Shown here one piece after another: positions 59,990 through 64,000 of a DNA stretch of 64,000 nt (position 1 is its first letter; every line of letters starts with the position of its first letter). Origin of the DNA: Actinomycetes bacterium. Its GTDB lineage: Bacteria > Actinomycetota > Coriobacteriia > WRKU01 > WQUG01. Where the stretch lies: contig JAISUC010000021.1 in NCBI GenBank assembly GCA_031272275.1, forward strand, positions 7,490 to 71,489. Reading direction: 5' to 3'. A program made the translations under genes and the position numbers. The notes below the pieces were generated by a model. The model was not told the origin of the DNA. It did not search any database and saw nothing but the letters and a program-made list of their open reading frames with translations.

Positions 59990-59998
59990 TTTCGGTCG

Positions 59999-60658
59999 TC
60001 ACTCTTCTGTATCCTCACTAAAGTCAAGAGCGAGTTGCTCTCCTGCTTTCAGGTGTTCCTCTTCTGCTTTCAGGAGTTTCTCGAACCGTTTTTGCACGAT
60101 TTCTTCCAATGATTTCACGAGTTCTTGCAAATCTTCAATATCTTTCAGTTCGCGTAGCGAAAAAAGGGTGTCACCAAATTCATCTCGATATCGACGATAC
60201 AGAACAACGGGTTTGTTGTTCAGCAGTAGCTGGATTGCATTTCTCAGACTTCCCGAGCTTACCGATAGCTGTCCGTAACGTGGGTGCATATACGTATCCT
60301 GCCACACAATCAAACCATATTTGCACGCGTCACCCATTGCCCGGTCTTTTTCTGTTTCCCGTTCTTTTTGCTTACGTGGTTTACCGTCTTCACTAGATTT
60401 TTCTTCGGCCTTTGGTGAAACCTGAACTATGTCCCAGTCCTCCGGCACCTTTATCCGGGGCGTATCGTGAATGGTGTATACCGTGACGTTGGTATACTTA
60501 CGTTTTCTGAGATCTTCAGCGATACGAGCATCAACCCCCCTCTCAGAGTCACCGATCAACACGGGGATATCTTGGTCGACAATGTTGGCAATTCGTTCCT
60601 CTAACTCCTCGGGCAGAGAATCAATCTGTCGTGATCCGCTAATGAACACAGAACCCAT
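59999..60658 (-). CDS. SLOG/DprA-like Rossmann-fold protein (N-terminal FISGSR...VLIGDSERGVD) with an acidic coiled-coil C-terminus
   Basis: 219 aa; low-GC island gene; the pattern resembles DprA/YpsA/LOG-type nucleotide-binding modules; the family assignment is tentative. Confidence 0.5.
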   Translation of the reverse strand: MGSVFISGSRQIDSLPEELEERIANIVDQDIPVLIGDSERGVDARIAEDLRKRKYTNVTVYTIHDTPRIKVPEDWDIVQVSPKAEEKSSEDGKPRKQKERETEKDRAMGDACKYGLIVWQDTYMHPRYGQLSVSSGSLRNAIQLLLNNKPVVLYRRYRDEFGDTLFSLRELKDIEDLQELVKSLEEIVQKRFEKLLKAEEEHLKAGEQLALDFSEDTEE

Positions 60659-60718
60659 TAAATACTCCTTAAATTCTTCAGTTAATCTGTCGAGACTCCA
60701 TTGTACCCGCCCCGTCCC

Positions 60719-61468
60719 TTAAAAGGGAATGTCTTCGGTCAGGACCTCGACGCTCGGGCCGTTTTGTCGAGACTCAGCTGTACCCACCCCGTCCTTTTTT
60801 ATACCACCACCGGTGTTTTTGCAGAGTGACAGGAAGTATATGTGACCGGCTCCGTTCTTCTGCAGTTCCTTAATACAGGCCCGTAAGGTGGCACCTTCCT
60901 CATACGTGTCATCAACAATCAAGGTGGGAAGGCCATTCAAAGTATAAGTGCACGAGAAATCACCTTCAGAAAAATTAGATCCCCTCTCTTTTCTTTTCGA
61001 CTCCACACACGTCTTCTTCAGTAAGGCTTCAACGTATCGGTATTCAGGTGTTGCGAGTCCTTGTGCGATTGCATAGACGTGCTGAATATCTCGGTCTTTC
61101 GAGGACGGAGCCGGCACGATCAAAAGAGACCCGAGGTCTTCTGCCGCAACCAGGTTTTTGATTACACCGGATTTCTTTATTCTACTTACCGCATCACTGA
61201 TGAGTTCCAGCTTTTCCTTCCTACCAAGATTCTTCCAATACTTTAAGTGATTGATAGTCTCCCCGAAATCAGAGCGATTGGCAGCGTCCTTATGATACGG
61301 TTGGATTGCCAAGCCCTTGGTAAGACCGTCTGCAGTGATGGGAAGAAAAAGCCTACTGCCACAACCACCGAACCAGTCTTTGCAATAGTACTCACCTTCA
61401 TGGAGTTTACTCTTCATAATATCGGTGTTGCCACAAAACGGGCATCGCTCTATTCCTAGGAATTCCAT
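60719..61468 (-). CDS. ComF-like phosphoribosyltransferase-domain protein with N-terminal C4 zinc ribbon
   Basis: CPFCGN..C..GGCG zinc ribbon; PRTase type I motif LIVDDTYEEGATLRACIKEL; strong RBS GAGGAGGTG. Confidence 0.75.
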   Translation of the reverse strand: MEFLGIERCPFCGNTDIMKSKLHEGEYYCKDWFGGCGSRLFLPITADGLTKGLAIQPYHKDAANRSDFGETINHLKYWKNLGRKEKLELISDAVSRIKKSGVIKNLVAAEDLGSLLIVPAPSSKDRDIQHVYAIAQGLATPEYRYVEALLKKTCVESKRKERGSNFSEGDFSCTYTLNGLPTLIVDDTYEEGATLRACIKELQKNGAGHIYFLSLCKNTGGGIKKDGVGTAESRQNGPSVEVLTEDIPF

Positions 61469-61569
61469 TTCTTCACCTCCTCACAAAACGGGCATCGCTT
61501 TTTCTCGATTACCTTGACCCTGCCTTGTTTCTGCATCTCTTTAAATAAATCCAACATACTCTTAGCCAT
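61456..61569 (-). CDS. 37-aa ORF (MAKSMLDLFKEMQKQGRVKVIEKKRCPFCEEVKKWNS) that duplicates the PRTase N-terminal half zinc ribbon and overlaps the PRTase start
   Basis: RBS GAGGTGG 7 nt upstream; an 18-nt direct repeat cacaaaacgggcatcgct sits at 61432-61449 and 61482-61499; not in the supplied ORF track (under 60 aa). Confidence 0.3.
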   Translation of the reverse strand: MAKSMLDLFKEMQKQGRVKVIEKKRCPFCEEVKKWNS

Positions 61570-61581
61570 CTTTTCCACCTC

Positions 61582-62904
61582 TCACTGCAGACCGCGTTTT
61601 ATGATCTTCATATGACGCTTTGTTCCCTTGAATAGTGACGGGCTTCGTTCGAATGTTCGATGGGATCGCTTTACGTAGTTCAGGAAATTCGGCTGCTTTC
61701 GATCCCCCTTCTCCGAATAGATCTGATAGAGCATCCTTCTTGATTTTGCCCCTTTATGTGGGTCTTGTGCCGCAATGGCGTTTACCGTATTGATCTTTCG
61801 GCGTAGGCGATAGTGGTATTTTGAAATGGTCTTATCGCGAATGCGGACTTCCGTGCCGTCAATAGCGAAACCCAGATATTCCAACACATCTTTCGTGTTC
61901 GGTGTATCCGGCAGATAGTCCTCGTTGCAGTTGTGGATTGCACTGTGCACACGGTGATAAACACGGGTTTTGTCCGGCTGCAGGTCGAGCCCGGGGATTG
62001 AATCAATAATGCCGACCAGCCTTTTGTAGATACAATCAAAACCGACTCCGTCCGTTTCGTCGGAAGGGATGATGACGATGAAGTCATCACAATAGCGCAT
62101 GTATTTACCGGAGTATTCCGTCACCAAATCATGTATCAACTTGTCGAATTCCAGCATATAGACGTTTGATAAAACCCCACTGATGGGGGAGCCTTGCGGT
62201 ATCCCATAGTCGTTGTCATTACGTGCGATAGCACCACTGCGCGATTCGCGTTTACTCAACTGCCTGTATTGCTCAGGGGTCAACACACGCTTTTTTCGGT
62301 CGAGCTCTCTGCGCGTCTTAACCCCATTGATTTCCAGCAAGGACTTCAGGCTCCAATCAGAATAGCGCGTGATGTTCTTGTAGACCGCATAATAATCAGC
62401 AGGGAGCTTTGGGGCACCAAACAATGAAAGAAGTCGTTCTTTCAAGTACCGATGATCCAAGTGGTCAAAGAAGCCCGTAAAATCCCCAATCAACACAAAA
62501 CACTCCGGATGCTCGGCAATACAATCAAAGGCCGCTTTCGCGAAGTCTATGTTGCATTTTTTCAGGTCTGACCGATATGCAATGGCACAATCAGCGGTGC
62601 CGTCAACAGCAATGCGCCGAACGTACTTTTCCTCCAACAGCAGCGAATAGTATTGATAGATGCAGCGATCGATGTGCGCGGCATAGCGAATGGGGCGTTC
62701 TTTTGCCTTGGTACCGGTTCCCTTGTGGTATTTCCGCGTATGCTCGACGTAGTGAATAAAAGGATAGAATCCGTGTCGCGCAACTTTTTCGGGATCCGTG
62801 ATGTAATCCCATTTGCTGTCGCAGCTTACGCGCAGATCAAAGTGCGCGTAGCCTTTTGGCTTGCTGTGTTTATTTCGCCACTCGTGCAGCTGTTCGGGGG
62901 TCAT
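61582..62904 (-). CDS. Reverse transcriptase (retron/defence-associated RT-like, canonical motifs 1-7)
   Basis: RPIRYAAHIDRCIYQYY (motifs 1/2), DFTGFFDHLDH (motif A, D..FF), GIPQGSPISGVLSNVYM (B'), YCDDFIVI (YxDD), LGFAIDG (motif 7); 440 aa with a basic C-terminal tail. Confidence 0.85.
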   Translation of the reverse strand: MTPEQLHEWRNKHSKPKGYAHFDLRVSCDSKWDYITDPEKVARHGFYPFIHYVEHTRKYHKGTGTKAKERPIRYAAHIDRCIYQYYSLLLEEKYVRRIAVDGTADCAIAYRSDLKKCNIDFAKAAFDCIAEHPECFVLIGDFTGFFDHLDHRYLKERLLSLFGAPKLPADYYAVYKNITRYSDWSLKSLLEINGVKTRRELDRKKRVLTPEQYRQLSKRESRSGAIARNDNDYGIPQGSPISGVLSNVYMLEFDKLIHDLVTEYSGKYMRYCDDFIVIIPSDETDGVGFDCIYKRLVGIIDSIPGLDLQPDKTRVYHRVHSAIHNCNEDYLPDTPNTKDVLEYLGFAIDGTEVRIRDKTISKYHYRLRRKINTVNAIAAQDPHKGAKSRRMLYQIYSEKGDRKQPNFLNYVKRSHRTFERSPSLFKGTKRHMKIIKRGLQ

Positions 62905-63167
62905 ATTGTTGTCCCCGAATGCACAAAAGCCACCGGCACGGGGTACGACATCCCTAATCCGGTGGCCCTAAAACGATAATACCTGATGTCATTGACATCG
63001 TCGGCCGTACTCAATTGCACACAAAGTGCGATCATGTAGTTCAATACTTCCCTTATCCCTGCGGATAAGGCGTCCCCATTGTAGATGATTTGCGTTGGGC
63101 TGTCAACGCTCGTTTCGAAGCCGACCAATTGCCTCTCCTGCTCTTCCAGCGGAATAATACTTCCCAT
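62901..63167 (-). CDS. 88-aa hypothetical ORF translationally coupled to the RT (ATGA overlap); alternatively a non-coding RNA region
   Basis: Its stop overlaps the RT start codon; the region holds several stable hairpins (62930-62965, 62985-62999, 63051-63070), so a structured ncRNA is equally possible. Confidence 0.35.
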   Translation of the reverse strand: MGSIIPLEEQERQLVGFETSVDSPTQIIYNGDALSAGIREVLNYMIALCVQLSTADDVNDIRYYRFRATGLGMSYPVPVAFVHSGTTI

Positions 63168-63336
63168 CGTAGAGGCCGTTCTCTTTCAGGATGCGAATCT
63201 GATTTGAGGTCGCATGATGATTCCACATTTCAGAGTTATGATACTGGCTACGATAGCCATGCTGCGCACTTCTATAGATAGCCTTACGGTTATGATAGCC
63301 ATCGCTATAATCGGAATATGAGTTGCGCCTTGCCAT
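63103..63336 (-). CDS. 77-aa Tyr/His/Ser-rich small protein, first gene of the island operon
   Basis: Strong RBS GAGGAAGGG 8 nt upstream of ATG; unusual composition (12 Y, 7 H). Confidence 0.4.
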   Translation of the reverse strand: MARRNSYSDYSDGYHNRKAIYRSAQHGYRSQYHNSEMWNHHATSNQIRILKENGLYDGKYYSAGRAGEAIGRLRNER

Positions 63337-63403
63337 TTGGCATACCCCTTCCTCAACTACTGTTTCCGGTAATCCACCTCAAACCCGAAAATGTGCCAGC
63401 GCA

Positions 63404-63431
63404 AAAATAGCACAGGGGGGGGGGCTGTCAA
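63404..63431 (-). promoter_or_regulatory. Promoter of the island operon: TTGACA - G/C10 homopolymer in the 16-nt spacer - TATTTT
   Basis: Minus-strand TTGACAG-C10-TGTGC-TATTTT; the 10-nt homopolymer tract is at 63415-63424. Confidence 0.45.
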
Positions 63432-63670
63432 GGAGGCTTTTTTCAGTTGCAGATGGGGTACCGATTACGATGAAATCCGCAGTTCAAGCTGCCTCCGCAC
63501 GCCGTCCACCAAACAGAGCCACACTAAAGCGGGGGAGTACGTCCCGGCGTCTGCGTTGGGCTGCGCGCCTGCTGCCGGATGGGCGCTGCTGCGGGACGCA
63601 CTCCCCCCCCTGAAAACGTGGGATTCCGTGTTCAGTTAACTGCAAAATACGTGAAAGTAACTGTCAATAG

Positions 63671-63693
63671 TTTTGCGGTTACAAACCGCAAAA
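63671..63693. terminator. Perfect 10-bp hairpin TTTTGCGGTT-aca-AACCGCAAAA (bidirectional terminator-like) at the island edge
   Basis: Perfect inverted repeat flanked by A- and T-runs. Confidence 0.5.
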
Positions 63694-63720
63694 CAGACAG
63701 CAAAAACACCCGAATCTGCA

Positions 63721-63790
63721 AATCACCGAATGAATCGCCTGCAAACTATCGACTGAAACACCTGCAAATCATCGAACGCGCAGGTAAATC
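63721..63790. repeat. Three 23-nt iteron-like direct repeats (CTGCAAATCANCGAA...)
   Basis: CTGCAAATCACCGAAtgaatcgc / CTGCAAACTATCGACtgaaacac / CTGCAAATCATCGAAcgcgcagg. Confidence 0.55.
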
Positions 63791-64000
63791 ACTCACGCGT
63801 GCGGCGTGGGTACGTGTGGCCCGCTGCCTAACGTATCGCGCAGTATCCGCCAAAAGGCCGCACGATCGACGTCGCACGTAATATCCACATTGCCCTTCGC
63901 ATCATCGGGCGTGAATGCTGTTTGGCCATCTTGCGCCCCGACGCGGACCCGCCCACGCCTCAACGTGCACACCTCGGGGCAGAACACGTTGACGCCGACC

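Follow-up and report, generated by a model that had tools for sequence, protein, structure and literature searches.

The 64,000-nt stretch of DNA analysed here (hereafter the window) comes from an Actinomycetes metagenome-assembled genome (MAG) and carries a locus of the DRT2 type, in which a reverse transcriptase (RT) gene is preceded on the same strand by a non-coding RNA (ncRNA) gene. As far as its sequence can be read, the locus keeps the DRT2 enzyme together with every RNA element known to hold it, and lacks the template from which the toxic product Neo would be written. We regard it as likely that this is a DRT2 system that was disarmed by the loss of its template. The template-less ncRNA is known from this single MAG locus. 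The RT gene, the ncRNA and two upstream open reading frames (ORFs) of 77 and 88 amino acids, referred to as p77 and p88, are all located on the minus strand, and coordinates are given as window positions throughout.

In the DRT2 systems described to date, the ncRNA is ~280 nt long and comprises a 5' handle, a template of ~120 nt and a pseudoknotted scaffold with two hairpins termed the 'tower' and the 'buttress'. The RT copies the template repeatedly by jumping between short repeats, which are ACA in Klebsiella. The resulting concatemer joins a -35 and a -10 box across the repeat junction and encodes a stop-free antisense ORF, neo, the product of which stops growth (PMC11100668, PMC12039810). 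This gene is written from RNA only when the cell is infected.

The reverse transcriptase and its non-coding RNA

The RT matched the PADLOC Drt2 model with E=8e-142, whereas the best retron RT model reached only 7.5e-9. It also exceeded the cut-off of the NCBIfam Drt2 equivalog NF041746 (400.9 bits, cut-off 390), in contrast to the NCBIfam retron models, which scored 22-42 bits against cut-offs of 235-600. By these model scores, the protein is assigned to the DRT2 (UG2) enzymes and not to the retron RTs. A total of 2,653 homologues were found, the nearest of which are 49-51% identical, and those with a named host are mostly Firmicutes. No closer relative was detected in genome, metagenome and 5.8-billion-protein searches, the best match being 51% identical over 84% of the query and the best full-length matches 49-50%. 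In an alignment of 28 sequences, the RT kept all 66 invariant columns and departed from the consensus at 10 of the 120 highly conserved ones, a count also seen in 3 of the 27 other sequences.

The sequence-only reading had placed four hairpins in the 430 nt upstream of the RT gene and proposed a structured ncRNA there, possibly the msr-msd RNA of a retron. All four hairpins are present, and each of them is more stable than its dinucleotide shuffles (z=-2.8 to -4.0). The strongest, CCUUAUCC-GCAG-GGAUAAGG at 63051-63070, has a free energy of -12.6 kcal/mol (z=-4.0), and none of its 200 shuffles was as stable. The GCAC-UUUGU-GUGC hairpin at 63017-63029 has z=-3.3, and the palindrome at 62985-62999, with 6 bp and a 3-nt loop, has z=-2.8. 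The long hairpin, noted earlier at 62930-62965, was confirmed and extends over 62926-62968 (-23.1 kcal/mol, z=-2.9). All four hairpins are retained in the centroid fold of the 167-nt segment 62905-63071 (z=-1.8), and the overall fold of the 521-nt region gives z=-2.5.

These data raise a key question: to what kind of RNA do the hairpins belong? The anatomy of the RNA was reconstructed from 41 loci (L001-L041) that encode relatives of the RT and belong to a mostly Firmicutes clade; the loci were fetched, and their RT-upstream regions were aligned. The homologue sets differed between analyses and included 20 sequences for the handle, 19 for the pseudoknot, 23 for the distances between element starts, 22 for the units bounded by jump repeats, and 17 for tblastn and gene linkage. 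In the homologues, the 5' part consists of a promoter, a 6-nt gap, an 8-bp handle hairpin (GCCUUAUGU…ACAUAAGGG), GAUUG, UUGUCAA (antisense TTGACA) and a variable stretch. It is followed by CCUCC (antisense GGAGG), a hairpin with the loop UAUUAUAACAUA (antisense TATAAT) and (U)AUUG, and the 3' part is formed by GGGUAGCUGG, a short helix and a long hairpin with the loop UUAGGGAUGCUACCCCCC. Covariation in homologous loci, which had been suggested as a check on the hairpins, was found for the handle, tower and pseudoknot helices. All eight pairs of the handle helix show two-sided changes, with 98% of cells paired; the helix of the tower, i.e., the long hairpin, also covaries, and the tower and pseudoknot helices are 98-100% paired. 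The pseudoknot itself (GGGUAG/CUACCC, formed with the tower loop) is paired in 100% of cases, and four of its six pairs covary. The 5' part of the homologous ncRNAs is matched by the Rfam family RT-6 (RF03027) with 48-66 bits (gathering score 46.7), and the match covers the handle hairpin, GGAAG..GAUUGUUGUCAAC and the first template hairpin.

The template-jump repeat in this clade is AUUG (or AUU), not ACA. These repeats bound units of 138-168 nt. When the boundaries are set crudely and automatically, 17 of the 22 units have a length divisible by 3 and a circular ORF on the antisense strand; the same Neo-like ORF is found in four of the other five, which brings the homologues with an antisense ORF to 21 of 22. 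The antisense promoter is split between the two ends of the template, with the -35 half at the 5' end and the -10 half at the 3' end; the halves appear as TTGACAACAAT and TATGTTATAATA, and their spacer, checked for L001, is 17 nt long. A common junction, …QLTTI|LNYVIIVKE…, is found in the predicted Neo peptides, that is, the -35 box, the spacer and the -10 box read as protein. Locus L040 (1271-1583, JGI 3300042591), which adjoins a NADAR-DarT1 gene, contains a 147-nt unit between two 9-nt repeats AGTATTGCG. This template is of full length, but every antisense frame is interrupted by stops and a clear TATAAT is lacking; its neo, too, seems to be either broken or non-canonical, and the stops suggest that neo decays in this family.

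Against this background, the segment 62905-63071 is predicted to encode the ncRNA partner of the DRT2 RT, and the earlier proposal of a structured ncRNA directly upstream of the RT gene is supported. The covariance model of the handle (R1) has its best match in 5 kb at 63071-63039 (11.1 bits, E=0.05), with UUGUC deleted after AUUG in the alignment. The handle keeps GCCUUAU/AUAAGGG and shows a compensatory change of GU/AC to CC/GG. The covariance model of the scaffold (R2) gives a full-length match at 63022-62903 (25.5 bits, E=0.0066), the only credible one in 64 kb. In this alignment, the model pairs of the tower stem are kept except for one flagged as non-standard, and many of them show two-sided changes, the strands CCUGUCAGC/GUUGACAGG being replaced by GCCACCGG/CCGGUGGC in the window. 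An nhmmer profile of the homologous ncRNAs finds the tower alone, whereas the other elements needed covariance models. The pseudoknot, as read from the sequence, retains five contiguous pairs (GUACG/CGUAC) and six of seven overall, with the last G-C pair of the homologues swapped to C-G. The four hairpins thus correspond to the handle, a small hairpin between two AUUG motifs, a buttress-like helix and the tower. The name of the buttress is taken from Wilkinson et al. (PMC12039810), and the hairpin at 62985-62999 would be this helix. The compensated changes in the scaffold prove selection on structure across the divergence from the Firmicutes relatives, and they are silent on the time since template loss. 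A predicted strong sigma-70-type promoter, P1, would drive the ncRNA; its -35 box includes the p77 stop codon, and its -10 box is separated from the handle by 6 nt, as in the homologues. The coordinates of all elements are presented in Table 1.

If the region were instead a retron msr-msd RNA, the RT would produce branched msDNA. A structured RNA upstream of a defence RT, on the same strand, is a likeness to retrons. However, the hairpins match the handle and scaffold of the DRT2 ncRNA, the RT belongs to a different clade and is a Drt2 equivalog by the scores given above, and no msr/msd architecture is identifiable in the window. In the sole long-range inverted repeat (62925-62934 / 63432-63441, 90% complementary), the upstream arm falls outside both promoters, P1 and the p77 promoter P2. 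The products also differ: DRT2 enzymes make linear concatemers primed from the RNA 3' end, and retrons make 2'-5' branched msDNA. The retron interpretation is almost certainly wrong.

Table 1 Predicted features of the DRT2 locus and the upstream reading frames
Feature	Positions	Strand	Details
DRT2 (UG2) RT	61582-62904	minus	440 aa, YCDD active site, no extra domains
RT Shine-Dalgarno site GGGGAC	62911-62916	minus	ncRNA scaffold runs directly into this ribosome-binding site
DRT2 ncRNA, handle and scaffold only	62905-63071	minus	~167 nt; R1 and R2 covariance-model matches
Promoter P1 of the ncRNA, TTGACA-17-TACAAT	63078-63106	minus	promoter scan, 11/12 matches
5' handle hairpin SL1, GCCUUAUCC-GCAG-GGAUAAGGG	63050-63071	minus	best R1 match, z=-4.0
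AUUG, jump-repeat counterpart	63042-63045	minus	alignment to homologues
Small hairpin GCAC-UUUGU-GUGC between the two AUUG motifs	63017-63029	minus	fold, z=-3.3
Second AUUG	63012-63015	minus	alignment to homologues
Pseudoknot 5' strand GAGUACG	63006-63012	minus	pairs with CGUACCC 62941-62947 in the tower loop
Short hairpin GAUGUC-AAU-GACAUC, 'buttress' position	62985-62999	minus	fold z=-2.8, position in R2 alignment
Long 3' hairpin, 'tower', conserved loop UUAGGGAUG...CCCC	62926-62968	minus	nhmmer match, R2 alignment, z=-2.9
p88, MDR1775932.1 (LBS17_05780), hypothetical protein	62901-63167	minus	TGA overlaps the RT ATG
p77	63103-63336	minus	77 aa; Shine-Dalgarno site GAGGAAGGGG at 63345-63354, eight bases before ATG
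Promoter P2 of p77, TTGACA-16-TATTTT with TG extension	63404-63431	minus	promoter scan, 10/12 matches; C10 run in spacer

The neo template

In the window, the scaffold starts 49 nt after the handle does, versus 129-197 nt (median ~168) in the 23 homologues, and the AUUG at 63045-63042 is separated from the one at 63015-63012 by at most 30 nt. Read from the sequence, this stretch contains no -35 box, -10 box or ribosome-binding site (RBS), and its sole ATG directly precedes a TAG. The small hairpin within it may be a linker insertion like that of homologue L006 or a relic of the template hairpin that bears the -10 box in the homologues. The junction can be aligned in three ways, namely, as a clean fusion at the jump repeats with an L006-like linker hairpin, as a 30-nt mini-template, or as a deletion reaching the internal AUUGAAC that homologues carry just 5' of CCUCC. 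All three alignments agree that both halves of the neo promoter, the RBS, the start codon and the body of the ORF are absent. Pattern and model searches for the neo -35, -10 and handle motifs elsewhere in the 64-kb window revealed nothing above chance. Likewise, Rfam RT-6 has no match in the window even at E<=10, because the sequence that follows AUUG (UUGUCAAC and the next hairpin) is missing; the window shares with RT-6 the handle and the GGAAG..AUUG stretch. With the template and the neo signals absent, the locus is predicted to be unable to make Neo.

Several larger or alternative candidates were rejected. Units of 84 or 114 nt delimited by a further AUUG at 63126-63129, and a unit of 113 nt delimited by the 10-nt repeat GGGAAGUAUU, include the handle and have antisense stops in all three frames. 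The UAUCAUAAC motifs in p77 resemble the antisense -10 loop of homologue L005; they are located in a low-complexity tail, outside any hairpin or RBS context, and were treated as a coincidence.

Another important question is whether a template exists and was missed, either because it is too diverged or because another part of the genome supplies it in trans. Tang et al. (PMC11100668) report divergent DRT2 clades where the annotation of Neo is harder, and the search covered 64 kb of a draft genome. In cis, however, there is no room for a template: upstream, p77 has its stop codon inside the ncRNA promoter and thus leaves no space, and downstream the scaffold follows shortly after the handle. Moreover, any unit containing the handle has stops in all three antisense frames, there is no second handle or scaffold in the window, and the known DRT2 RTs use cis-encoded RNA. 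We therefore give very little credence to a missed template.

Compared with the KpnDRT2 type, the locus has the same kind of RT, i.e., a Drt2-family enzyme without extra domains, and the same kind of upstream same-strand ncRNA, with its own promoter, a 5' handle and a pseudoknotted 3' scaffold with one long and one short hairpin. It differs from KpnDRT2 in having no template, split promoter halves, RBS, start codon or stop-free circular ORF, and in the AUUG jump repeat of its clade, which replaces ACA. The ncRNA is ~167 nt long rather than ~280-330 nt as in other DRT2 systems. The host also sets it apart from known DRT2 systems, being an Actinomycetes MAG, as does the RT, whose known relatives share no more than 51% identity with it.

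Possible histories of the locus

What history could have produced such a locus? In working DRT2 systems, the ncRNA consists of the 5' handle, a template of ~120-170 nt and the pseudoknotted 3' scaffold. Most likely, the template was deleted by microhomology at the AUUG repeats, an event that would disarm a toxic abortive-infection system and leave the RT and the RNA scaffold intact. Since Neo is toxic, template loss would be an easy escape after transfer to a new host. In this case, the template-less system may simply be inactivated.

Three observations weigh against this history. Within the window, R1 and R2 score only modestly. The RT itself is intact, with no signs of decay, which is compatible with a recent loss as well as with a retained function. 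Finally, the lack of any RT relative above 51% identity makes lineage-level covariation and an analysis of nonsynonymous to synonymous substitutions (dN/dS) impossible and leaves no basis for dating the loss of the template.

A further possibility is that the deletion was created by the assembler at the 4-nt microhomology, and we consider such an artefact unlikely. A Logan contig from SRR14710912, which is a second public assembly, possibly of the same reads as the MAG, is identical to the window over 60000-64000. NCBI lists the exact RT protein for an Actinomycetes MAG, where its gene lies on a contig of 73 kb.

The preserved parts also allow a functional reading, in which the DRT2 system works with a short template or has been repurposed: the RT would bind the scaffold and copy the 30-nt unit between the two AUUG motifs, or would act together with the downstream genes p37, PRTase and p219 (see the last section). 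The intact RT and the preservation of the promoter, handle, pseudoknot and tower are all consistent with this. The inter-AUUG unit is exactly 30 nt long, a length divisible by 3, and, like the templates of the homologues, finishes with a hairpin beside the second AUUG. Yet a length divisible by 3 and an open frame are expected by chance at 30 nt, the unit has neither promoter nor RBS and only an ATG followed by TAG, and a similar AUUGAAC linker is found outside the template in two homologues (L006 and L016). With regard to the downstream genes, no terminator-like site lies between the RT gene and the PRTase start, and the gaps are short; against a joint function, PRTase and p219 are linked to DRT2 in none of the 17 homologous loci. 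On balance, a functional short-template or repurposed system is unlikely, and a repurposed system is less likely than a disarmed one.

Other class 2 DRTs, with short or minimal templates, offer a possible analogue for the copying of a 30-nt unit. DRT10 (PMC12632851) is reported to produce tandem repeats and DRT9 (PMC12483538) homopolymers, both being RTs with scaffold ncRNAs that make repetitive non-coding DNA. The two belong to different UG families and are protein-primed, and DRT10 has a SLATT effector; the comparison with the window is made by RT family assignment only. A natural 'empty-cassette' DRT2 that is still working, with a Neo-independent function, might synthesize 30-nt tandem-repeat DNA or serve as the sensor arm of p37/PRTase/p219 in a 3.4-kb low-GC island. 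We consider this version quite improbable.

The consequences differ between these histories. If the template was deleted, the locus is a field example of how a self-toxic abortive-infection system can be disarmed by losing its cargo and keeping its enzyme. If, on the other hand, the locus is active, DRT2 enzymes have a non-Neo output. The locus also shows the template to be a separable insert between two fixed RNA scaffolds, a property useful for the engineering of programmable rolling-circle reverse transcription.

Upstream reading frames and genomic setting

The two ORFs, the ATGA overlap of p88 with the RT start and the Shine-Dalgarno site of p77 were located as in the sequence-only reading, and its view that the region could be both RNA and protein is borne out by the ncRNA together with the p77 gene. 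The two ORFs themselves fared differently.

By its conservation, p77 can be taken as a real gene of a conserved, unnamed protein family. Residues 1-36 form a tail that is rich in Tyr, His and Ser and predicted to be disordered, and residues ~38-72 form the conserved domain W-x2-PAT-x2-QI-x2-LK-x2-G-x2-DGKYYS-x-GRA-x3-IG. HMMER searches among 1.84 billion representatives revealed 23 relatives at E<=1e-3 (best 5e-7), one of which is also 77 amino acids long and also starts with MAKR; longer relatives carry an additional C-terminal S1 domain. The alignment has 14 invariant columns, with the block W…(P)AT..Q(I)..L(K)..G..DGKY.S.GRA…IG. Residues 40-77 are modelled as a helix-loop-helix with a pLDDT of ~80. 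No match to p77 was found in Pfam, NCBIfam, PHROGs, PADLOC, plasmid or phage records or by a word-index protein search, and a fold search returned nothing. The earlier suggestion of a novel accessory protein holds as far as the gene and its conserved family are concerned, but not for the accessory role: four family members examined at other loci have unrelated gene neighbourhoods without an RT, and p77 is therefore better described as a neighbour of DRT2. The public protein collection searched, with NCBI among its sources, does not contain the exact sequence, and p77 appears to be unannotated in the public record.

A G10 run on the plus strand (C10 on the gene strand) occupies 63414-63424 in the P2 spacer, between the two promoter boxes (-35 and -10); ~180 nt further out, at 63605-63612, there is a C8 run. 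Homopolymers placed in a promoter spacer are a classic arrangement for phase-variable expression via length changes.

In contrast to p77, p88 is probably not a gene but an RNA gene read as protein. A real accessory protein, coupled to RT translation via the ATGA, could be argued for from a frame that is open for 88 codons, from the ATGA at the RT start and from the fact that two annotation pipelines called it. Against this, p88 matched only itself among 5.8 billion proteins, had no tblastn match upstream of the RT in the 17 homologous loci and lacks a Shine-Dalgarno site. Over its first 65 nt it shares the DNA, in another frame, with the conserved C-terminus of p77, and the remainder covers P1 and the entire ncRNA. 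In addition, most homologues have no sense ORF of at least 60 amino acids at this position. A protein-coding p88, as proposed from the sequence alone, is thus highly improbable. The public annotation seems to have the two calls the wrong way round and needs fixing, since MDR1775932.1 is probably no protein and the conserved gene next to it is missing from the collection.

The locus is part of a low-GC block of ~3.4 kb (59990-63440, GC 0.44-0.51) in DNA with a GC content of 0.65-0.69. The block contains, all on the minus strand, p219, PRTase, p37, the RT gene, the ncRNA and p77; it is flanked on one side by a gene for a 1542-aa surface protein with Listeria-Bacteroides repeats and on the other by a nucleoside hydrolase gene. 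The block resembles a defence islet acquired by horizontal transfer.

A stretch of 571 nt contains two interleaved, exact direct repeats of 10 nt; by a rough estimate, ~0.15 such pairs are expected by chance. GGGAAGTATT occurs at 63043-63052, after the handle, and at 63156-63165, in the DGKYY codons of p77; TTGACAGCCC occurs at 63097-63106 and 63422-63431 and is common to promoters P1 and P2. Partial functional constraint may account for both repeats.

Downstream of the RT, the gene at 60719-61468 (minus strand) encodes a zinc ribbon and a PRTase, the core of which matches ShosT (E=3e-7) and PsyrT (E=5e-6). It is followed by p219, of 219 amino acids, and the pair spans 59999-61468 on the minus strand. 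A PRTase core with a second small gene is the arrangement of ShosTA/PsyrTA, and the two genes may be a ShosTA-like pair; the partner p219, however, has no match to ShosA, another family or a PDB entry in model and database searches. Its single-sequence AlphaFold model (pLDDT 50) is unreliable and too poor for a structure search, and shows a beta-alpha-beta pattern. An exact 18-nt direct repeat, AGCGATGCCCGTTTTGTG, which encodes RCPFC, is present at 61482-61499 and 61432-61449, 50 nt apart. One copy forms the end of p37, an ORF of 37 amino acids that follows shortly after the RT gene, and the second is located close to the start of the PRTase gene; a short duplication seems to have separated an N-terminal extension from the zinc-ribbon region of the PRTase.

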